IMG/VR virus record: IMGVR_UViG_3300028591_000138
Location: 1-64,000 of that record
Source of the DNA: a virus
Lineage: Duplodnaviria; Caudoviricetes
Strand: one strand, 5' to 3'
Length of the DNA stretch: 64,000 nt
The notes under the pieces were generated by a model, which worked only from the letters and a program-made list of their open reading frames with translations, was not told where the DNA came from and did not search any database. Shown in pieces: positions 3,046 through 59,856 of this stretch (position 1 is the stretch's first letter; each line of letters begins with the position of its first letter). Made by a program: the position numbers and the translations under genes.

Positions 3046-5028
3046 ATGGATAATATGGACAACATCGAGACACAAGGCATCCAGGGGTTGCAGGGAGCCC
3101 AAGGTCTGCAGGGTTTGCAAGGCGTTCAGGGAACCCAGGGTACGCAGGGTGTCCAGGGGTTGCAAGGTGTCCGTGGTAAACAAGGCAAGATAGGCCCGAC
3201 TGGAGCCAAGGGTTCGGACGGTCTGCGCGGTGTACAGGGTGTACAGGGCGACAGAGGTCCTACAGGTATCCAGGGTACGCGTGGTTGTAACGGTCTGCAG
3301 GGTGCCGAGGGTATGCTTGGCGTGCAGGGTGTGCAAGGTAAGAGCGGTAGTGCTGGTCTGCAGGGTACTCGTGGTTGTAACGGTGCCCAGGGCGCCGACG
3401 GTATGACTGGTGTCCAGGGTATACAGGGTCGCAAGGGTCTGCAGGGTTTCAACGGCTTGATGGGTGTACAGGGTGAACCTGGCTCGCAAGGTTCACAGGG
3501 TCTCAGAGGTCCTGCTGGCGCCCGCGGCGAGATGGGTTATCAGGGTGACGACGGTGAGATTGGGATACAGGGACTTGTGGGTGAGGACGGAGCCATTTGG
3601 GAAGATGGTGTTAGGTTGAGCGGATATAACACCCACCTGTTCGAGTTTGATGGCACTGAAGGTAAATTTGTTTCCAAGAACACTTCGACAACTGATTTGC
3701 TGTATATACGAAACGGTGCCAGGATTCAAATCTGGCTTGACCAGGATGCTTATGACTCCATAGAGGAGACTGGAAATATCATAATAGACCGTCTGGAAAG
3801 CGGTACTCTGATTGAAACTTCATATCCTGTGTACTATGCAGGGGACACTCCGTTAATCGGAATGATTGACCCCGAGGCTGATATCGACTCCGTCATAGAG
3901 CTGGTGTACAGGGAAGAGGCGTGGTACTATAACGGCGGTCTGATTGCTTCGGCTTATGCTGGAAGCAATTCCATAGCCATAGACGGCAAGGAGATTTCTG
4001 TCCGTCGTTCTGAAAGTGACGGCAATTCCCTCCAGATACTTGACGACGGTTTATTCGTCAGCACAGCTGAGGGTGTCAAAATCATAAACGTTGAAATCGT
4101 TGACCTGACGGAAGAAAGTGGCACGACCTACTGGGCGGTCAATCCAGAGAACGTGCGTGTGAGGGTTCGTCCAATCAGCACCTGGGGGACTTATGAGGAT
4201 GAAGATGGCAACCAGTACACGGAAGACTATGTCAATGCAATTGAGGGTGGTCACAGATACATTGTAATCACCACGTCTGACAAACACATGCACTGGGTGG
4301 AGAACGACAATACGTCCGACACACATGTCGACAGTTTCAGTGTCGTTGACATTCCAGAGACTCAGGAGGAACCAGCTCATCAGGTTCTGAGAATAACCCT
4401 TAACGACAGTTCCACTTCCCCGACAACCTTTGACGTCAATGTGAACGACATCGCCGTTCATGTAGACAACGCCGAGATACACTACAACGAGGAAGAGGAC
4501 GAACTTGTTGTTACACAGGACGGTATTCTCACACAAGATGTTATTAACACGCTTCTTGGTTATATAGACGGGTACGACTGCGGTCTGTATGAAGACCCTC
4601 CGATTGAGATGAGTCTGGAGATGCCGAGCGGTATGGGATATGGTGATTATCGCTATGACCTGTTCAATGAAGACGACCAGCTGTTGAGGTACACCATTAC
4701 AATGGAAGACCACACTGGAAGTAGTAATAACATGGCTGACCGCCAATATATATTCACCGCTCCAGAGGGTCGTAGGATAAAAGTGACATTGGTCTCGCAA
4801 AACTTCAATCCTGATTATTCACAGACAAACCTACGTTATCAGGCTTTGTATCTGACCAACGAAGAAACCGCAAGTTCCGCAACCTATGACGAAATGTGGG
4901 ATTACAACACCCCAGTCGACCAGGTGTTTATAACTGACGGTAATACCTGTTCGGTAAGGTTTCATGTCGAGTACTTGACAACTTGGACAGACCTTTTCAC
5001 TATAATAGTTGAATGCAAACCGATTTAG
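3046..5028 (+). CDS. Collagen-like fibre/decoration protein with acidic C-terminal region (possibly CUB-like last domain)
   Basis: About 55 G-X-Y triplets (QG-rich) at the N-terminus; internal YDCGLY motif; FTAPEGRRIKVT...SVRFH resembles a CUB-type beta-sandwich. Confidence 0.8.
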   Translation: MDNMDNIETQGIQGLQGAQGLQGLQGVQGTQGTQGVQGLQGVRGKQGKIGPTGAKGSDGLRGVQGVQGDRGPTGIQGTRGCNGLQGAEGMLGVQGVQGKSGSAGLQGTRGCNGAQGADGMTGVQGIQGRKGLQGFNGLMGVQGEPGSQGSQGLRGPAGARGEMGYQGDDGEIGIQGLVGEDGAIWEDGVRLSGYNTHLFEFDGTEGKFVSKNTSTTDLLYIRNGARIQIWLDQDAYDSIEETGNIIIDRLESGTLIETSYPVYYAGDTPLIGMIDPEADIDSVIELVYREEAWYYNGGLIASAYAGSNSIAIDGKEISVRRSESDGNSLQILDDGLFVSTAEGVKIINVEIVDLTEESGTTYWAVNPENVRVRVRPISTWGTYEDEDGNQYTEDYVNAIEGGHRYIVITTSDKHMHWVENDNTSDTHVDSFSVVDIPETQEEPAHQVLRITLNDSSTSPTTFDVNVNDIAVHVDNAEIHYNEEEDELVVTQDGILTQDVINTLLGYIDGYDCGLYEDPPIEMSLEMPSGMGYGDYRYDLFNEDDQLLRYTITMEDHTGSSNNMADRQYIFTAPEGRRIKVTLVSQNFNPDYSQTNLRYQALYLTNEETASSATYDEMWDYNTPVDQVFITDGNTCSVRFHVEYLTTWTDLFTIIVECKPI

Positions 5029-5054
5029 TTTGAAAGTGGCATCTAATTAAAAAC

Positions 5055-5086
5055 AGCGCAGTCGTATTGCTCGGCTGCGTTTTTTG
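5055..5086 (+). terminator. Intrinsic terminator
   Basis: GCGCAGTCG..CGGCTGCGT + T-run. Confidence 0.65.
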
Positions 5087-5170
5087 TTTTACCAAAATCG
5101 CTATAGTTTTTGCTTTTTGACAATATTATATATTATATTGTTTAACATAATAATAGAAATAATTTCAAAT

Positions 5171-5416
5171 ATGAAAAACTCTACTTTGGTTTTATACGGG
5201 CTCCTGATTGGTGCGTGCGCCCTATTGTGGGGTCTCATTGGGTGGAAGGTGTCCCTTTTGTGTTTCGGTCTGTTCCACCTCTGTATGTGGGTGAATGTTA
5301 CAATGACAACCCTCTCCAACGCCCTTGTCGGCAGAACTGTCTCGGAAAACGACGCCTGGTACCGAATCCTCTGCATAATCATAGGGTGTGTCTGTGTGGC
5401 AATTGTAATAATTTAG
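5171..5416 (+). CDS. Small membrane protein (about 3 TM helices)
   Basis: Hydrophobic stretches; ATG at 5171 preferred over the upstream TTG. Confidence 0.65.
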   Translation: MKNSTLVLYGLLIGACALLWGLIGWKVSLLCFGLFHLCMWVNVTMTTLSNALVGRTVSENDAWYRILCIIIGCVCVAIVII

Positions 5417-5496
5417 AAGTTAATTTAATACAATGAGAAGCTTAAAAAAGTTGAAAGGGGATGGTTGGGATAACAACAGAAGATAATAAACCTATT

Positions 5497-7318
5497 CAAA
5501 TGTAGTCAAAAATGTTCAAAAATAACTCGTATAAATATATTATAGTTTAAGACTATTTATATAATGAAACGAAAGTGAGGAGTCGTTTCAAAATAACAAT
5601 AAAGATATACAGAGGTTTTATCCTTGATGGCACTCCTCACATTACTGCCGCAAGTTTAATGCCTCTTTTTTGTTATAATATGGTCATAGACAGCAAATAC
5701 ACAAAAACATTCAAGTCAAACGACTTAACCCGTCAGAAGTATGACGAGCTGCATTCTTTTGCTGTTATGCTGCGTGACCACAAGAACCTTGTTTCCGAAT
5801 ATGTCAACTCTAATCTTGAACACTACCTTGAGTATTCCAAACTTGACTTCTTGAAGGAAATGCGTGCAAGGTACAAGGATGTCATTCCGAGTTCGTTTGA
5901 TGTTCAGTTATACACCCAAGTGTTCAACTGCTATCAGAACAAGTTTGAAGCAATCCGCAAGCATCTTGACTTTGAAGTTGTAAGATTTGTTGGTTTTGAG
6001 TTCTACAAGCGTGACACCAAAAAGAACAAGAAAGGCGACTTGAAAAAGGTTGTGACAGAAAAGTCAAAAACACCTCTAACAATATGTCTAACATACCTTG
6101 CAAGGTACGGAAACGAGAACACGCTTGACTATATCGCAAAGCAGTTGGAGACCTGCGATGAAAAGAAACGTGAGTTTTACAACAACATACTGCGTTGTTG
6201 TGAGAAATTCGGTTTTGAACGTCTGTTTGAACTCGCTTTGCGTAAACGTAACAGAATCATAAAACGGTATTCTGAATATCCGATTGAGTTCAAGTCCTTG
6301 TCATTCGGGGGAAGGTGCAGAAAAACAAGAATCATTGACTACAACAAGAAGTTCGGTTCAGTCATCAACTCCTTTGTTAGTCTGTCTGGAATCGGAAGAA
6401 AGTCGTTTGATATTCCCGTTAAGTTTAACAAGGATTGGCACGGCAGTATGAGAGACTACAGCAAAACAAATCCCGACTATGAGTATGTGCTTACGTTCAA
6501 CGAAAAATACCATCAAGTGAACATCAACTTGTGCAAGGACGGAGAGAGGTATATACCAGAAGCGGGTGACAATGTTGTTGGTATTGACGTTAATTGCAAG
6601 CACAACTTGTTCAGTCTTTCAAACGAGACAACTTATGATTACAATCGACAACTTGTAAACGACTTCTGCAAACTCTCGTTGAAAGTGGACGAACTAAAAA
6701 AGGACAAGAACTACACCATCGGCAAGCGCAAGCAGCAGAAACTTGACACCTTGAAGATGAAGATGCTGAAATCCGAGCAACAACTCATTTCAAGTATGTG
6801 CAAGGAACTGATGATGGATGGTGTGAACCACATCGTTATGGAAGACCTTGACAACGGATTTGGAAGGTGCTACGTCAAAGACAAGGATAATGAGGATATT
6901 AACTACAACAGAAAGGTCAAGTTTCTTGGATTGTCATCCTTGAAGCAGGAGGCTGAACACATTGCAAGAAAATATGGTATTGCATTGTCAACTGTGCAGG
7001 CGAGTTACACAAGCAAAATGTGTCCGATTTGCGGTTGCATTACCGATGAGAACAGACCCAACCAAGAAACCTTTGAATGTGTTGAGTGCGGGCATAAGGA
7101 CAACGCCGACTTCAACGCATCCAAGAACATAATGAACAGAGTGACCGTAACCGTGTTACGTGATTCGCTCTTAAAACGACTTGGCAACGGCGCATACGAA
7201 CCGAGAAAACTGAAAAGGGAGAAGGTGAAGGATGTGCTGCTGTCATTCCGAAGAGACTTGCAGAAAGCAAGTGGTGAATATAGTGAAAATAACAACTTGA
7301 ATACTTTTGACTATGTTT
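5497..7318 (+). mobile_element. Transposase-less TnpB element with imperfect terminal inverted repeats, inserted near the 5' end of a phage gene
   Basis: Left AAATGTAGTCAAAAATGTTCAA versus reverse-complemented right AAACATAGTCAAAAGTATTCAA (18/22). Removing 5497-7318 joins MVGITTEDNKPI (ATG 5461) in frame to SSSETSTVEVFAKE... Confidence 0.65.
5565..5676 (+). ncRNA. Candidate structured 5' leader RNA: two hairpins with complementary loops (kissing loop/pseudoknot)
   Basis: Stem TGAAACGA/TCGTTTCA with loop GTGAGGAG (5575-5582); long stem AGAGGT..CTTG.TGGCA/TGCCG CAAG..GCCTCT with loop CTCCTCAC (5633-5640); starts just after TATTTATA at 5554. Confidence 0.55.
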
Positions 7319-7320
7319 AG
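5680..7320 (+). CDS. tnpB: RNA-guided endonuclease TnpB family, long variant (546 aa)
   Basis: RuvC-I VVGIDVN, RuvC-II IVMEDL, Zn finger CPICG...CVECG, RuvC-III DNADFNASKNI all intact; ATG 5680 preferred. Confidence 0.9.
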   Translation: MVIDSKYTKTFKSNDLTRQKYDELHSFAVMLRDHKNLVSEYVNSNLEHYLEYSKLDFLKEMRARYKDVIPSSFDVQLYTQVFNCYQNKFEAIRKHLDFEVVRFVGFEFYKRDTKKNKKGDLKKVVTEKSKTPLTICLTYLARYGNENTLDYIAKQLETCDEKKREFYNNILRCCEKFGFERLFELALRKRNRIIKRYSEYPIEFKSLSFGGRCRKTRIIDYNKKFGSVINSFVSLSGIGRKSFDIPVKFNKDWHGSMRDYSKTNPDYEYVLTFNEKYHQVNINLCKDGERYIPEAGDNVVGIDVNCKHNLFSLSNETTYDYNRQLVNDFCKLSLKVDELKKDKNYTIGKRKQQKLDTLKMKMLKSEQQLISSMCKELMMDGVNHIVMEDLDNGFGRCYVKDKDNEDINYNRKVKFLGLSSLKQEAEHIARKYGIALSTVQASYTSKMCPICGCITDENRPNQETFECVECGHKDNADFNASKNIMNRVTVTVLRDSLLKRLGNGAYEPRKLKREKVKDVLLSFRRDLQKASGEYSENNNLNTFDYV

Positions 7321-7654
7321 TTCTTCGGAAACCTCAACCGTTGAAGTGTTTGCCAAGGAATATCCTTTCCTTGAGAAATGTATGAAATATTTGAACTGGG
7401 GGGGGGATAAGGTAAGCGTGTTTGTCAAACACAAAGAAGGCGAAACAACATATATGCTGTTGTTGTACACCGAGAAACGCGAATACCAAATTATCGTGAC
7501 CTCGACGTATATGGGCTGCCAAACGGATTGTCGATATCACCGTCCGTTGGAGGATTGGACTCGCGGTCGAGACCTGGCTGATGGCAAATGTAACGAGGAG
7601 ACGTTTAGACGCATACTATGCGATATCATCAGCACGGAACTGGTTGCACTGTAA
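7313..7654 (+). CDS. Hypothetical protein (3' part of the interrupted gene, restarted by an ATG in the element end)
   Basis: ATG TTT in the right inverted repeat is in frame with the downstream ORF. Confidence 0.65.
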   Translation: MFSSSETSTVEVFAKEYPFLEKCMKYLNWGGDKVSVFVKHKEGETTYMLLLYTEKREYQIIVTSTYMGCQTDCRYHRPLEDWTRGRDLADGKCNEETFRRILCDIISTELVAL

Positions 7655-7685
7655 CTTATTAAAAAAAAACTTACATGATATTTAT

Positions 7686-7745
7686 AATAATATTTCGAGA
7701 AAACTCCGAAATCTTTAGTTTCGGAGATGAATTGAACTAACCTTG
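7686..7745 (+). mobile_element. Solo left end of the IS605-type element, with the last tnpA codons
   Basis: Reverse complement matches 59582-59635 (CAAGGTTAG..TCAATTCATC(T/C)CCGAAACT.AAGATTTCGG.GTTTTCT.GAAA); preceded by TTTAT at 7681-7685. Confidence 0.75.
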
Positions 7746-7880
7746 CAATATCAATATAATTGAAAAAAAATCGTCTTCGGAAATATAATTCTTGGGACGG
7801 TTTTCTTTTAAGGCAATATTTATATAATATAAACAAAAAACAAACAAATTAATAATAACAAAATTAATCTAGATTAAGTT

Positions 7881-9518
7881 ATGAGTAAATTAAGAAAAGT
7901 CCAGTTTTTCCGTAACAGCAGCTTGACTGCCTATGCTAACCACGCTGCTGCTGTAAATGCTGCAGAATTGGCTTGGAAGGCTCAAGGCTTTGCCAATATG
8001 GAAGACGGTGAACTGTTATTGTATCGTTATACCATATCAGGTGAAACGGGTACACCAGCACATACCATTGTAGGTGTTGTAAGAAACGATGGTACCAATA
8101 AGTATTTCGAGGTTCTCGCCAACTACGATATGCTGACCAGCCAGTTCGATAGCTTGGATGTTCCTGGCTACGAGCAAGCCTATATAACTATTGGCAACGG
8201 CACTTCTACATTAACAGTCCAAGGTATCCAGGAAACCGACGGTTTGATTAGTGCTGCCGCCACTCAAGGTCTCACTATCAATATTGACGGTGAATACAAA
8301 GATATTGACAACAAGATTGCCACACAGAGCACTGTAACCAACGCTGTTGAAGCTCTGAATGGTTCTGCAACCATTGCAAGTGAATCTAACGGTGTTGTTA
8401 CTTTGAAGGTTGGTGTTCAGGAAGTGCAAGGTATCATCAGCAATGATGCAAACACTGATATTACCCTTGCTAAGGTTGCCAAGACTGGTGCTGCCGCTGA
8501 CGTAAGCATCGCTGACAGCAATAACTTGTTCACTGCAACTAACGTTGAAGATGCACTGGCTGAGGTTCAGGGTAATGTTCAGACGGTTCAAGGTAATCTT
8601 GAGACTGTTGCCGCAAGCATCAAGGATGGTGCTATTACATGGAATGACGGAACCATTGATGTTAACGTTTTCTCAGCTAACACTAACACTAACTTGACAC
8701 TTCGTCAACATGACTTTGTATATGACAGCAATGAACTTGGTGTAAATGTTCAGACCGCAACTTCCGCAACCAACAAGATTGCTACGATGGCTGATATCGC
8801 CAGCTTGACAGGTGCAATGCACTATAAAGGTGGCGTAACAGAATATCCCACTCCAACTGCAGACACCAAAGCTGGTGACACTTATATTGTAACACAGCGT
8901 TTTGAACACCCTGCACAAAGCGGTAATTGGTATGAAGTTGGTGATATGCTTGTTGCCACGGCGGATGGTACTTCTGCAACCTATACCGTTGTTCAATCGA
9001 ATTTAACCCTCGGTATGGGTACAGGCGAGGTTGCCGCTAACCAGACTGCATTGACGGTTAATCAAATTGTTGTTGCTGGCTCTACTGGTGTTCAGACCAC
9101 TGGCTACACGTTCGACGCTGAATCTACGGCTGGTAATACCACAATCGGTTCAGATTCTACCAACGCACAAGTACCTACTTCGAAGAACGTTTACGACGCT
9201 ATCCAAGATTTGGCTGTTAACAGTGTTTCGGAGACTGTTGGCGTAGGTACCGTTACCGACGGTGCGTCAATCACCGACACTCTAACCGTTGACGGAACTG
9301 CAAGCACACAGACCGTAAATATTGTTGCGACACAAGGTGTTAGTGTGACGCCTGACGCAGGTACGCAGACAATAACATTGGCAGCTAAAGTTGCTGACTA
9401 TGCTCATGTGGGGAATACGACTACAGTAACCACCGAGACTGACGCATATAACCTCTTGAAGGTTGATGCTAGCGGTAACTTGTCGGTATCAGACACCTGG
9501 GACTGCGGAACTTATTGA
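7881..9518 (+). CDS. Fibre/decoration-like structural protein
   Basis: T/A/G/N-rich; N-terminus similar to 11108, LAKVAKTG segment similar to 49958, AMHYKGGV repeat-type motif, C-terminal WDCGTY. Confidence 0.7.
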   Translation: MSKLRKVQFFRNSSLTAYANHAAAVNAAELAWKAQGFANMEDGELLLYRYTISGETGTPAHTIVGVVRNDGTNKYFEVLANYDMLTSQFDSLDVPGYEQAYITIGNGTSTLTVQGIQETDGLISAAATQGLTINIDGEYKDIDNKIATQSTVTNAVEALNGSATIASESNGVVTLKVGVQEVQGIISNDANTDITLAKVAKTGAAADVSIADSNNLFTATNVEDALAEVQGNVQTVQGNLETVAASIKDGAITWNDGTIDVNVFSANTNTNLTLRQHDFVYDSNELGVNVQTATSATNKIATMADIASLTGAMHYKGGVTEYPTPTADTKAGDTYIVTQRFEHPAQSGNWYEVGDMLVATADGTSATYTVVQSNLTLGMGTGEVAANQTALTVNQIVVAGSTGVQTTGYTFDAESTAGNTTIGSDSTNAQVPTSKNVYDAIQDLAVNSVSETVGVGTVTDGASITDTLTVDGTASTQTVNIVATQGVSVTPDAGTQTITLAAKVADYAHVGNTTTVTTETDAYNLLKVDASGNLSVSDTWDCGTY

Positions 9519-11107: not shown

Positions 11108-13663
11108 ATGCCTTCGAACAATTATTTATACGGACACAAGCACATCCTCCTACGCAACGGCGAGGTCTTCGCGGACAGGGCTGCAGCAGTGCAGGAGATA
11201 AACAGCCTCCACAGCCAGGGGGTTTTCTCGGATGGCGAAATTGTTACCGCCAGATATTTCCACATGGACGGCAATAACACGAAAGTGATTCGTGCGTTGT
11301 TGGCTGAATGTGTAACAGTTGACTATGTGGATTCTACTACAAGCATTGCTGTACATGAGAACAGGATGGAGTTCTTCGACAACACTGATGAAATATTCGA
11401 TAACATTGAGGTTATACAGGGTGTTCAGGGAACCCAAGGTAGCATAGGAGCACAGGGTGCTCAGGGTACGCAGGGTATCAAGGGTGACACTGGAGCACAG
11501 GGTGCTCAGGGTACGCAGGGTATCAAGGGCAACACTGGAGCACAGGGCGCTCAAGGTACGCAAGGTATCAAGGGCGGCACTGGAGCACAGGGTGCTCAGG
11601 GTACGCAAGGTATCAAAGGCGACACTGGAGCACAGGGTAGCGTAGGCGCGCAAGGCGCCAAGGGTACACAAGGTACTGCTGGTACCAATGGAGCCCAAGG
11701 TAGCGTAGGCGCGCAAGGCGCCAAGGGTACGCAAGGTACTGCTGGTACGAACGGTGCACAGGGTAGCGTAGGCGCGCAAGGCGCTACGGGTGCCCAAGGC
11801 GCGAAAGGAGCCCAGGGTAACGTAGGTGCTCAGGGTGCTACGGGTGCCCAAGGTACTGCTGGTACCAATGGAGCACAGGGTAGCGTAGGCGCGCAAGGCG
11901 CCAAGGGTACGCAAGGTACTGCTGGTACGAACGGTGCACAGGGTAGCGTAGGCGCGCAAGGCGCGAAAGGTGCCCAAGGTACTGCTGGTACCAATGGAGC
12001 ACAGGGTAGCGTAGGCGCGCAAGGCGCGAAAGGTGCCCAAGGTACTGCTGGTACCAATGGAGCACAGGGTAGCGTAGGCGCACAAGGCGCGAAAGGTGCC
12101 CAAGGTACTGCTGGTACCAATGGCGCACAGGGTAGCGTAGGCGCACAAGGCGCGAAAGGTGCCCAAGGTACTGCTGGTACCAATGGAGCACAGGGTAGCG
12201 TAGGCGCACAAGGCGCGAAAGGTACACAAGGTACCGCTGGTACGAACGGCGCACAGGGTAGTGTAGGCGCACAAGGCGCCAAGGGTACGCAAGGTACTGC
12301 TGGTACCAATGGAGCACAGGGTAGCGTAGGCGCTCAAGGCGCCAAAGGTGACACTGGCGCACAGGGTGCTCAGGGTACACAAGGTATCAAGGGCGACACT
12401 GGAGCCCAGGGTAGCGTAGGCGCACAAGGCGCCAAAGGTACGCAAGGTACTGCTGGTACCAATGGAGCACAGGGCGCTCAAGGTACGCAGGGTATTATGG
12501 GTGCCAATAATCTTGACCTCGTGTTTCAATTGGGTGTACAAAACAATGAGGTTGTAATTACCAGCGCTAGTCAAACTGTTTCACAGGTGTTGACAGCCAT
12601 TTCTAATGGGCGAAAAGTTACAACAACTATTATAGTCGAAGACAGTTATTATAGTAACTGTGATAGCGTATGGTGTACAGTCAGTGGCGATGAATATTTT
12701 GAAAGTTTTGTTCCTACTTGGGGTGAAATTTTTGAAATCTATGGTGATTTAGTTAATGACTGGGAATTTACCAACAACGAATACAAAACCAAACAAACAT
12801 ATATACCCAGCCCGACGGCTTCTGGAACAGCAACTCAGTTTATAACAACTATTGAGCAAAATGAAAACGGAGAAATTTATGCTACAAAAAGTAACGTTAA
12901 TGTTGTAGACAGAAAAGTTGAACAAACAGGGACAAAACCTCTAGATATAGCCCTTCCAGTAATATTTCAATTTCCAGACCCTGGGACTAAGACTGATGTT
13001 GTTGCAATCGATATAGAGTATGGTTCAAGCCGATTTAGTTATAACCCGAATGCGGGTGTTTTAAGTGCACCTTATTTCAAGGGTGACGGTCGTTTTTTAG
13101 CCAATATTCCTACGGGTTCACATACGCACGGAAACATTCAAAACAGCGGAACGCTACAAACCAACGATGTGACAATAGCCACAGGTGACAAGTTGGTTAT
13201 AACAGATTCCTCCGACAGCGATAAGATTGCAAGGTCATCATTATCATTTAATACAGTGCACCAGGACAAGTTTCTTAGACAAGACGGTACATGGCAAACA
13301 ATAAGAATACCGCAAACAACGTTTAAGTTTGACACACTAACAAACAATCAAACGGCTGTAACTTTTGCCGACACTCCTTGTTACTATGATGTAGCAGTAA
13401 CTGGAGCAACACAAACATTTAATATAAGCATTCCAGCAGCAAACGAATATACCAACTATTTATTGGTAAAAAACACAGGCAGCGCTGAATGTACAATAGC
13501 TTTGGCTAAAGCGAGTGGTATGGGGTGGACTAAATTTGTATTACCGTCAAACACAATAACTGTTGCAAGTGGGAAGGCTATTGAAATATCGTTTGTTTCA
13601 GATTCAACAGGTGCTGTTCTATATATCACAAACTCAGCAGAATTAACAATTCAAACATTATAA
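11108..13663 (+). CDS. Collagen-like tail fibre protein
   Basis: About 120 uninterrupted G-X-Y triplets; HTHGNI and KFLRQDGTW motifs typical of phage fibres. Confidence 0.85.
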   Translation: MPSNNYLYGHKHILLRNGEVFADRAAAVQEINSLHSQGVFSDGEIVTARYFHMDGNNTKVIRALLAECVTVDYVDSTTSIAVHENRMEFFDNTDEIFDNIEVIQGVQGTQGSIGAQGAQGTQGIKGDTGAQGAQGTQGIKGNTGAQGAQGTQGIKGGTGAQGAQGTQGIKGDTGAQGSVGAQGAKGTQGTAGTNGAQGSVGAQGAKGTQGTAGTNGAQGSVGAQGATGAQGAKGAQGNVGAQGATGAQGTAGTNGAQGSVGAQGAKGTQGTAGTNGAQGSVGAQGAKGAQGTAGTNGAQGSVGAQGAKGAQGTAGTNGAQGSVGAQGAKGAQGTAGTNGAQGSVGAQGAKGAQGTAGTNGAQGSVGAQGAKGTQGTAGTNGAQGSVGAQGAKGTQGTAGTNGAQGSVGAQGAKGDTGAQGAQGTQGIKGDTGAQGSVGAQGAKGTQGTAGTNGAQGAQGTQGIMGANNLDLVFQLGVQNNEVVITSASQTVSQVLTAISNGRKVTTTIIVEDSYYSNCDSVWCTVSGDEYFESFVPTWGEIFEIYGDLVNDWEFTNNEYKTKQTYIPSPTASGTATQFITTIEQNENGEIYATKSNVNVVDRKVEQTGTKPLDIALPVIFQFPDPGTKTDVVAIDIEYGSSRFSYNPNAGVLSAPYFKGDGRFLANIPTGSHTHGNIQNSGTLQTNDVTIATGDKLVITDSSDSDKIARSSLSFNTVHQDKFLRQDGTWQTIRIPQTTFKFDTLTNNQTAVTFADTPCYYDVAVTGATQTFNISIPAANEYTNYLLVKNTGSAECTIALAKASGMGWTKFVLPSNTITVASGKAIEISFVSDSTGAVLYITNSAELTIQTL
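11417..12505 (+). repeat. Collagen tandem repeats, 63-bp unit (GTAGTNGAQGSVGAQGAKG[AT]Q, about 11 copies) plus 45-bp GAQGAQGTQGIKGDT units
   Basis: Near-identical nucleotide repeats directly visible. Confidence 0.95.
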
Positions 13664-48678: not shown

Positions 48679-49857
48679 ATGACAAAAGAAGAATTTATTG
48701 AAAAAGCTAATGCTGTTCACGGAGACACCTATGACTATTCATTAGTTGAATACAAAAACAACAAAACTAAGGTGGCGATTAAATGCAAGGAATGTGGAAC
48801 CATATTCTATCAGAAGCCTAACAATCATTTGCAAGGTTCTGGGTGTCCAAATTGTGCAAGAAAAAAAAGGTCGGAACGTTTGAGTGACACCAGGGAAGAT
48901 TTTATAAGGAAAGCCATAGAAAAACACGGTGACAAATATGACTACTCGTTGGTTGAGTATGTTAGCAGTCGAGAAAAAGTGAAAATCAGATGCAAAAAAT
49001 GCGGCAGTATTTTCGAACAGGCGCCAGCCATGCACTTGACAGGCAACGGTTGTTCAGTATGTAATCCCCCACATCAAAAGCTTACCCATGAAGAGTTTGT
49101 TGAACGACTAGCTCAAACTCACCCAAATCTGGAGGTTCTCAGTGAATATCAGGGAAAAGACCGCAAAATAACTGTTAGATGCAAAATACATGATTATACT
49201 TATCAAACGACGCCACACCGTCTAGTGCAAGGGGCAAATTGTAAATATTGCTATTATGAAAGAGAAAAGAAAAACAAAACTAATAAATTGGATAAGGTTT
49301 TATCTGAAATTAAACGGATACACGGTGATAAATACGAATACCCTAATATTGAGTCTGAATATGTGACATCTAAGTCCAAACTCACAATCATTTGTCCGAT
49401 ACACGGTGAGTTTCACCAATCCTACAATAAACACGTTAGTCATCACCACGGTTGTCCTCTTTGCGATGAAAGTTATTATGAAAAGCAAACAGCTCAAACA
49501 TTAGATGACTTGAATATTAAATATGAACGCGAGAAACAGTTTAACTGGCTTGGTTTGCAGACACTGGATTTTTATTTACCTGAACACAAAATGGCTCTCG
49601 AAATCCAAGGAGAATTTCATTTCCAAAGTTTTACTATCAAAAACACAGTGGTCAACCATATGAACCAAGTAAGGCGTGACGAAAGAAAACACAAGCTGTG
49701 TGAGGAAAATGGTGTTAAACTAATATACATAATACCACACAAACTGATGAAAATGTCCAAAGTAAGTGATATTTATTCCAAAAGCAGTGTGGTTGAGATT
49801 GATAAAAACGGTGAATTGGTCGGCACTGCTATCAAGGAGTTAATCGAGAATTGCTAA
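48679..49857 (+). CDS. Free-standing homing endonuclease (DUF723-type Zn repeats + Vsr/PD-(D/E)XK-like nuclease)
   Basis: Repeated EEFI.KA..HGD.YDYS.VEY...KV.I.C..CG; C-terminal LDFYLP....LEIQGEFHF...RDERKHKLC. Confidence 0.8.
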   Translation: MTKEEFIEKANAVHGDTYDYSLVEYKNNKTKVAIKCKECGTIFYQKPNNHLQGSGCPNCARKKRSERLSDTREDFIRKAIEKHGDKYDYSLVEYVSSREKVKIRCKKCGSIFEQAPAMHLTGNGCSVCNPPHQKLTHEEFVERLAQTHPNLEVLSEYQGKDRKITVRCKIHDYTYQTTPHRLVQGANCKYCYYEREKKNKTNKLDKVLSEIKRIHGDKYEYPNIESEYVTSKSKLTIICPIHGEFHQSYNKHVSHHHGCPLCDESYYEKQTAQTLDDLNIKYEREKQFNWLGLQTLDFYLPEHKMALEIQGEFHFQSFTIKNTVVNHMNQVRRDERKHKLCEENGVKLIYIIPHKLMKMSKVSDIYSKSSVVEIDKNGELVGTAIKELIENC

Positions 49858-59524: not shown

Positions 59525-59590
59525 TTTGCTTGTTCTATTGGGGAAGCATCGCCAGAAACAATCAGAAACTACATCGAAAACCAAGGTTAG
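59525..59590 (+). pseudogene. tnpA: C-terminal remnant of IS200 Y1 transposase
   Basis: FACSIGEASPETIRNYIENQG* includes the catalytic Y..Q helix; the HUH-containing N-terminus is absent. Confidence 0.8.
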
Positions 59591-59643
59591 TTTCAATTCA
59601 TCCCCGAAACTGAAGATTTCGGGGTTTTCTTGAAACCTTTTAT

Positions 59644-59856
59644 AAAATCGAACCACCCGACTACCGTTACTACAACAGTAAGGTTGACCGTTACAAGAGG
59701 TTCCATAAATTCAACTTTCGCAAACAGCTCTTACATAAAAGATACGGTCTGCCGCTATCTATGACGGAACTTGAGATGGCAAGAGAACTTGGTTATGACA
59801 GGATATGGGATTGCGGGCTTGTAAAATATGTATACAAAAATCCGAATAATTGTTGA
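59644..59856 (+). pseudogene. C-terminal remnant of a Hef-like homing endonuclease
   Basis: PDYRYY...RFHKFNFRK...MTELEMARELGYDRIWDCGLVKYVY; no start, abuts the IS end. Confidence 0.7.

Follow-up and report, generated by a model that had tools for sequence, protein, structure and literature searches.

A kissing-loop, terminator-like leader RNA carried as a cassette by jumbo-phage TnpB elements: a candidate new RNA motif

The window analysed here is a stretch of 64,000 nucleotides, part of a 100.7-kb IMG/VR virus record (IMGVR_UViG_3300028591_000138, positions 1 to 64,000) whose estimated completeness of 29% indicates a jumbo phage; genes for collagen-like fibre, portal and head-protease proteins are present in it. 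On the plus strand, at positions 5467 to 7329, lies a mobile element of ~1.86 kb, IS607-like and carrying tnpB only, in which the gene for a 546-residue TnpB protein (5680 to 7320) is preceded by a promoter-like motif and a short leader of two hairpins whose apical loops are complementary to each other. Comparison of this leader with its homologues indicates that the loop-loop pairing is real and maintained by compensatory change, and that the leader, judged from its sequence and that of its relatives, is a real structured RNA motif, hitherto undescribed.

The TnpB element and the anatomy of its leader

The bounds of the element are given by similarity to 17 loci on other large or jumbo-phage contigs, which starts at 5465-5467 and stops at 7329-7331, the flanks being unrelated. 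The left end starts GGGATAAC (also written GGGATAACAACAG), and the right end reads ...ATGTTTAGTTCTTCGGA. Relatives at 68-77% protein identity have an IS607-family serine-recombinase gene directly upstream of tnpB, where the leader would be (at locus L011 this gene matches IS607 family transposase with 189.7 bits, cut-off 110), so the window copy, which has no tnpA, is a TnpB-only derivative of an IS607-type element. No empty site for the insertion was found in IMG/VR, and megablast of positions 4500-8500 against public phage records returned no match. The possibility that the element is an IStron was rejected, as there is no group I intron match at E <= 1, joining the flanks gives no single open reading frame (ORF), and the non-coding left part is ~215 nt long and AT-rich.

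The TnpB protein has the RuvC residues D303, E388 and D477 and an intact zinc-finger TNB domain, and these three residues and the zinc-finger cysteines are invariant across 13 homologues; together with the TnpA-linked relatives and the defined ends, this is the make-up of an IS607-family TnpB element. It matches Pfam Cas12f1-like_TNB (2.3e-16) and, weakly, OrfB_IS605, falls in PHROG transposase families, and has Cas12f and TnpB chains as its closest solved structures (~1e-9). The match to NCBIfam guided_TnpB (6e-25, 88 bits) is below the cut-off of 100, which marks it as a divergent TnpB. Its start is the ATG at 5680, since the N-terminus MxI.SKYTK is conserved from there in all homologues. 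A leader peptide or N-terminal extension from a GTG at 5575 was considered and set aside, as neither that frame nor that start is conserved and the conserved N-terminus begins at the ATG.

In the minimum-free-energy fold (-29.7 kcal/mol, z = -2.37) the leader forms two hairpins; 6/200 shuffles fold equally well, so the fold energy by itself is only mildly unusual. Hairpin 1 (5565 to 5590) consists of an 8-bp stem (5565-5572/5583-5590) and a 10-nt loop, AAGUGAGGAG. The A-rich single-stranded linker (5591 to 5609) has a core, AUAA(A)GAUAUA, that is conserved in leader alignments (the conserved sequence is also written AUAAGAUAU). Hairpin 2 (5593 to 5676) is long and irregular: an outer A/U closure, AUAACAA/UUGUUAU (5593-5599/5670-5676), is followed inwards by a lower stem (5610-5615/5662-5667, GAGG/CCUC), middle helices and an apical stem (5628-5632/5646-5650) with a 13-nt loop. 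Directly after its GC-rich base comes a tract of six U (5666 to 5671), giving hairpin 2 a terminator-like 3' end that lies 9 nt before the tnpB ATG. The original prediction had hairpin 2 closing 3 nt before the start codon, which holds, with the ATG itself at 5680 and not 5681; this outer closure (AUAACA/UGUUAU) is the least conserved part of the leader, being a pairing of A and U tracts whose register shifts among homologues. No Shine-Dalgarno sequence is present between the U-tract and the ATG, the pre-AUG region being rich in U and A.

The two loops carry segments, GUGAGGAG in loop 1 (5575 to 5582) and CUCCUCAC in loop 2 (5633 to 5640), that are perfectly complementary over 8 nt, so that on this point both the sequence and the computed fold bear out what had been noticed at the outset. 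The duplex energy is -16 kcal/mol, and by our own arithmetic two loops of 10 and 13 nt would share a perfect 8-nt match by chance with a probability of ~18/65536 = 3e-4. A kissing helix of 8-9 bp formed in the 10-nt loop would leave just the 5' AA unpaired. The leader does not have the form of a purine-type riboswitch, as no helix encloses both hairpins and no Rfam riboswitch matches it; more generally the Rfam search yielded no family for the leader, and nothing near any gathering score for either the leader or the 3' region of the element.

Upstream of hairpin 1, the stretch from 5528 to 5565 comprises CGTATAAATATATTATAG (5528-5545) and a promoter-like motif, ACTATTTATATAAT (5552-5565). Five copies of the motif occur in the window, where 0.69 would be expected, and two of the others stand before the neighbour of the portal gene and before the gene for the head maturation protease. 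From this enrichment and this position before head-module genes it is reasonable to infer a phage late-type promoter, which supports the phage-type promoter suspected earlier from the window alone.

Compensatory change in the hairpins and their loops

Of the loci compared first, seven have homologous leaders; more were obtained by a protein-profile scan of viral and metagenome contigs, and a covariance model from ten leaders then recovered further copies, giving a set of 20 distinct versions. All homologues derive from metagenomes of rumen or gut and from about a dozen phage contigs. The automatic hairpin finder was wrong on hairpin 1 of L013, L144, L108 and L133, and those rows were read by eye. 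Covariation was also computed on a 14-sequence version of the alignment.

Across the 20-leader alignment, standard pairs occupy 92% of cells, double-sided changes are found in 29/31 pairs, and none of 500 shuffles reaches any of the five measures; in a control in which the 3' partners are slid by 1-3 columns, pairing falls to about 42-46%. All parts of the fold share in this. The hairpin 1 stem has compensatory changes in 7/7 modelled pairs and the hairpin 2 apical stem double changes in 5/5, while helices 3-5 all covary. In the loop-loop helix covariation is seen in 7/8 pairs and pairing in 93% of cells; two rows that are aligned one column off account for most of the exceptions. G-C is all but invariant as the first loop-loop pair, and AA-G opens loop 1 in nearly all leaders. 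Both hairpins are thus present in the minimum-free-energy fold and covary, with the complementarity of their loops kept by compensatory change, as a kissing-loop structure would have it. Covariation of the loop-loop pairing among homologues was the test that the original prediction had named beforehand, and the leader passes it; with the null result from Rfam, the suggestion that this is an undescribed RNA motif gains strong support. G-U pairs (26) exceed A-C cells (11) in the alignment, and this excess and the 3' U-tract indicate an RNA read from the plus strand.

The loops occur in 13 versions, whose cognate partners match over 8-11 nt (mean 8.7) as against an average of 4.0 nt for non-cognate combinations. 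Given as loop 1 with loop 2, they are GUGAGGAG with CUCCUCAC (version 1, that of the window), GCGAGGAG with CUCCUCGC (version 2), GCAGAGAG with CUCUCUGC (version 3), GGAGAGAG with CUCUCUCC (version 4), GUGGCACG with CGUGCCAC (version 5), GCAGCAAGA with UCUUGCUGC (version 6), GUCAGACG with CGUCUGAC (version 7), GUAGAAUC with GAUUCUAC (version 8), GUGGAAGU with ACUUCCAC (version 9), GUGGAGAG with CUCUCCAC (version 10), GUGGACAG with CUGUCCAC (version 11), GUAGGAAGU with ACUUCCUAC (version 12) and GUGCAGA with UCUGCAC (version 13).

Two other roles for the loop sequences were tried and rejected. The GGAG/CUCC of some loops could be taken for a Shine-Dalgarno and anti-Shine-Dalgarno pair, a reading contradicted by GUGGCACG, GUCAGACG, GUAGAAUC, GUGGAAGU and GUGCAGA, which are without a GGAG- or GAGG-type core; and loop 1 as an anti-terminator competing for the GAGG strand works just in the purine-rich loop versions and is not conserved. 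Inside the elements the loops have no third pairing partner, neither as an 8-mer nor as positionally consistent 6- or 7-mers.

The cassette, its distribution and the 3' end of the element

The block shared among leader-bearing elements starts at ~5526 (CGTATAAATATATTATAG...) and ends at the U-tract, and its parts keep their order. All 20 versions, including the distant L013, L048, L108, L133 and L153, have hairpin 1 directly after the promoter motif, loops that pair with each other, and 5-11 T immediately 3' of the GC-rich base of hairpin 2. The distance from U-tract to ATG is 2-9 nt in 18/20 versions and ~30 nt in L148 and L179, and this wider spacing identifies the terminator-like hairpin, and not occlusion of the start codon, as the constant element. 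A GC-rich base with a U-tract (5662-5671), placed between the promoter motif at 5552-5565 and the ATG at 5680, is the anatomy of an intrinsic terminator, and the phage has hairpins followed by T-runs elsewhere, for example at 5055-5081.

A model search of five related phage genomes (1.35 Mb) found eight copies of the leader, all directly upstream of tnpB genes. The leader has a patchy distribution on the TnpB tree of the window's family: the main clade, L048 and the L108/L133 branch have it, the rest of the tree does not, and many intact homologues at 68-77% identity are without it. In L142 (G002:C1:68964-72094) it precedes a different nuclease, a 433-residue canonical IS605-type TnpB with HTH_OrfB_IS605, OrfB_IS605 and TNB domains that shares with the window TnpB 33% identity over a 42-residue zinc-finger stretch only; more members of this second lineage have the leader, with new loop versions, and the stretch corresponding to 5528-5565 belongs to their cassette as well. 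The contexts of the cassette are thus both IS607-type, with a serine recombinase, and IS605-type, with a Y1 transposase. That two barely related TnpB lineages share the leader points to a general expression function rather than to an RNA partner specific to one nuclease. A gapped 25-base pattern found no copy of the cassette in species-representative bacterial and archaeal genomes, and an exact 16-mer scan of IMG/VR gave no new leaders beyond the set in hand, the rest being chance matches.

The same rumen jumbo phages carry the second lineage (L142, L146-L187) in many copies, up to four on one contig, some of them with the cassette. Close relatives of this lineage, L157-L160, have no leader and a promoter-like ATATAAATAATATG that abuts the ATG; should this motif be a promoter, their mRNA would be leaderless or nearly so. 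One copy of the element studied here, L069:937-1090, is decaying. It retains hairpin 1, with GGAGAUGG as its loop; a clean deletion has removed hairpin 2 and the U-tract, bringing the linker directly up to the ATG, its promoter motif has changed, and its tnpB shifts frame after residue 483.

At the other end of the element, positions 7129 to 7329 on the plus strand form an omega-RNA-like region that overlaps the 3' end of tnpB and runs to the right end. A consensus fold computed from 53 distinct right ends has the terminal UUCUUCGGA paired with UCCGAAGA (7247-7254), ~75 nt upstream, in a helix that encloses hairpins, and a further hairpin lies at 7147-7159. The hairpin just before the element end covaries, occurring as AAAGUAG/CUACUUU, AAAGUGG/CCACUUU and AAAGCCG/CGGCUUU. 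A 3' scaffold overlapping the end of tnpB, with its guide read from the right flank, would be the usual TnpB arrangement, and we describe the region as omega-RNA-like. A mini-element, resembling a miniature inverted-repeat transposable element, joins 5466-5536 to 7129-7329, that is, 71 nt of left end to the 201-nt block of right end and omega-RNA-like region, with neither leader nor tnpB; it was seen as a 914-nt contig at depth 22 in a sheep-rumen metatranscriptome (run X1). In each of the four rumen RNA runs, contig depth along the element peaks over its 3' 160-200 nt. That the mini-element keeps the 3' block and not the leader argues against the leader as a guide scaffold or as a site needed in cis for transposition.

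The surroundings of the element hold several further features. The insertion is flanked by genes for large collagen triple-helix proteins, probably fibre proteins, at 3046-5028 and 11108-13663 (Pfam Collagen 2.6e-28 and 3.6e-56). A nine-G run at 7399-7407, possibly a slippage-prone tract or an assembly weakness, lies within a small downstream ORF (7382-7654, 90 residues, no family match). A repeat of 45-65 nt (86-88% identical) occurs at 7681-7745 and, on the minus strand, at 59582-59646 and 590-632; it includes a hairpin, CTCCGAAAC...GTTTCGGAG, and one copy sits 350 nt downstream of the TnpB element. In the head module, a gene for an HNH/homing endonuclease (48679-49857, PHROG 559, 4.5e-77) directly 3' of the head maturation protease gene represents another selfish element.

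Function of the leader and its relation to known systems

The reading we favour, and to which we give about an even chance, is that the leader is a portable attenuator acting in cis, a terminator locked by a kissing loop that limits TnpB synthesis. Positions 5552-5676 would then be a portable expression cassette of TnpB transposons in rumen jumbo phages, made up of a late-type promoter motif and a leader RNA of ~105-110 nt. The apical loops of hairpins 1 and 2 would form a kissing helix of 8-11 bp that locks the leader in one compact fold; when the strong late promoter fires, most transcripts would end at the U-tract, and in those that read through, the base of hairpin 2, which in most versions is 2-9 nt from the AUG, would hinder initiation. 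The predicted outcome is a small, gated amount of TnpB, made along with the mRNA that gives rise to the 3' omega RNA. The comparison itself shows the helices, the pairing of the loops and its conservation, the place of the leader within the element and its tie to two TnpB lineages; from the anatomy we infer where transcription starts, that it terminates, how translation is affected and in which direction regulation runs. The attenuator reading explains why the cassette is optional, independent of nuclease lineage, and found only before a potentially harmful nuclease gene. Translational control of tnpB, one of the two functions first proposed for the leader, survives in part: control of expression fits the anatomy, and occlusion of the start codon, given the ~30-nt spacing in two versions, is not constant.

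Several points weigh against attenuation. No conserved anti-terminator pairing or alternative fold, and no ligand or protein input, was identified for the leader, and the relief of attenuation is not accounted for; a terminator's need for a kissing partner fits no known rule. A simple terminator scan did not call hairpin 2, whose loop and internal loops exceed the limits of the scan, and intrinsic termination may not apply at all if a phage polymerase is used at the promoter. A weaker promoter would lower expression without any RNA. The ATG ~30 nt past the U-tract in L148 and L179 means that occlusion is not a universal part of the mechanism. Contigs from the four rumen metatranscriptome runs (small shares of each) leave 5596-5669 uncovered, an observation that proves nothing either way.

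An alternative that we consider unlikely, though it has evidence on its side, is that the terminated leader is the product: a stable small RNA (sRNA) of ~105 nt whose loops serve as a sequence address, pairing in trans with nascent leaders of the same type and so exerting control of copy number or immunity, like P4 CI RNA and P1/P7 c4 RNA. Promoter, 5' hairpin, 3' terminator hairpin and U-tract are indeed the anatomy of a discrete, nuclease-protected sRNA, and variation is concentrated in the kissing module, the window leader and that of L004 differing at 4/8 loop pairs and the adjoining stems and being nearly identical in the rest. These window/L004 changes are, however, all transitions, as in ordinary compensatory drift by way of G-U intermediates. 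Three co-resident elements of one phage genome have non-matching loop pairs (GCGAGGAG, GUGGCACG and GUGGAGAG; cross-matches <= 4 nt), as separate addresses would require, but in another genome the two copies differ at one loop position and cross-match over 6/8 nt, and in a third the two copies share their loops, so that orthogonality is not consistent. Pairing within the molecule should moreover outcompete pairing in trans, and the elements offer no third complementary site. A bolder form of the same idea, which we hold to be rather improbable, takes the loops for a programmable self-recognition code in which the 8-11-nt address of each element lets abundant leader RNA silence copies of the same type in trans and leave other TnpB elements of the genome alone. 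Specificity in such a code would evolve by paired loop changes while the cassette travels between unrelated TnpB lineages.

It is similarly doubtful that the leader is a module of the 5' untranslated region which stabilises the precursor of tnpB mRNA and omega RNA or promotes translation, with polymerase reading through hairpin 2. The position of hairpin 1 directly after the promoter motif, and so at the 5' end of the RNA, would suit a protective hairpin in a compact fold; the U- and A-rich pre-AUG tract without a Shine-Dalgarno sequence would suit a Shine-Dalgarno-poor host, and tnpB always follows the cassette. Stabilisation, however, has no need of a GC-rich stem base with 5-11 U, the terminator signature kept in 20/20 versions, and initiation is as a rule hindered, not helped, by a stable hairpin that close (2-9 nt) to the AUG, while relatives manage with a promoter-like motif abutting the ATG and no leader.

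The other function first proposed, that of an upstream guide scaffold or tracrRNA-like partner of the TnpB ribonucleoprotein, as in IscB omega RNA or Cas12f tracrRNA, is now very improbable. In its favour, the leader is a conserved structured RNA beside the gene of an RNA-guided nuclease and is found only there in the phage genomes searched, and the best Rfam match to it is tracrRNA, albeit at chance level (13.5 bits, E = 6.8, where the gathering score is 70). Against this, the structured region of canonical type is the 3' one, which ends exactly at the right end of the element and is the part retained by the mini-element, whereas the leader is absent from many intact close homologues and common to two TnpB lineages with almost no sequence similarity. 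Its promoter lies ~85 nt and its transcript start would lie ~100 nt inside the left end, and the leader stops before the ORF, so no flanking DNA would be transcribed into it; nor do the elements contain complementarity to its loops. The leader thus lacks adjacency to a transposon end, obligatory co-occurrence with the nuclease and a match to a curated model. Least credible of all is a role of the hairpins as DNA, either single-stranded structures or recombinase sites in transposition, for although IS200/IS605 ends use DNA hairpins and the leader is within the left part of the element, the mini-element is reduced to the right end and the outermost 71 nt on the left, without the leader, the cassette occurs with serine-recombinase and Y1-transposase elements alike, G-U pairs outnumber A-C cells, and the U-tract and promoter orientation indicate RNA from the plus strand.

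TnpB nucleases are the ancestors of Cas12 and are in development as compact genome editors, and what is known of their RNA biology concerns the 3' omega RNA only. The leader would add a second strongly covarying RNA, on the 5' side of the gene. If attenuation is the true function, it shows how a phage-borne transposon restrains a DNA-cutting enzyme and times it to late infection; if instead the loops are an address in trans, they represent a new and easily reprogrammed module of RNA-RNA control. Either way the leader is a candidate new RNA family, and its 13 natural compensatory versions amount to a mutational test of the pairing. We found no paper in the literature searched that links TnpB with kissing loops or describes such a 5' leader.

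Among known systems the left end of IS200 comes close: work by Beuzon et al. 1999 reportedly described there a terminator hairpin and a hairpin that occludes the start site. Both arrangements have two hairpins between incoming or own transcription and the first ORF, one terminator-like and one beside the start codon, and a presumed purpose in keeping expression of the transposon protein low. The leader differs in that its hairpins are tied by a covarying loop-loop helix of 8-11 bp, in having its own phage late-type promoter, in preceding tnpB and not tnpA, and in being a cassette common to unrelated TnpB lineages. The P4 CI and P1/P7 c4 RNAs are antisense immunity RNAs from the same strand as their targets, processed out and acting on separate sites in trans. 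They share with the leader a short leader-derived RNA and complementary sites on one strand of a transcript, a link of pairing to premature termination or blocked translation, and related elements that differ by covarying, specificity-setting bases, whereas the leader's partners are the apical loops of adjacent hairpins within ~60 nt, making the pairing most simply intramolecular.

Loop-loop contacts are known from L2-L3 of purine riboswitches, the dimerisation initiation site (DIS) loop of HIV-1 and RNA I/RNA II of ColE1. The leader resembles these kissing-loop RNAs in its Watson-Crick loop pairing, in the unpaired purines that precede the pairing segment on its 5' side (AA-G..., like those of the DIS loop) and in the conserved first G-C pair of the loop-loop helix. 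At 8-11 bp, however, its helix has an unusual length for loops of 10 and 13 nt, the partner hairpin is itself terminator-like, and there is neither the three-way junction nor the ligand pocket of the purine riboswitches. With TnpB omega RNA (reRNA), IscB omega RNA (HEARO) and Cas12f tracrRNA it has in common that a conserved structured RNA stands beside a gene of the TnpB nuclease family; those RNAs adjoin a transposon end or a repeat and carry a guide, whereas the leader is internal, upstream, guide-less, optional and independent of nuclease lineage. Set beside these systems, the kissing-loop terminator leader carried as a cassette by jumbo-phage TnpB elements is, as far as its sequences indicate, a new RNA motif.

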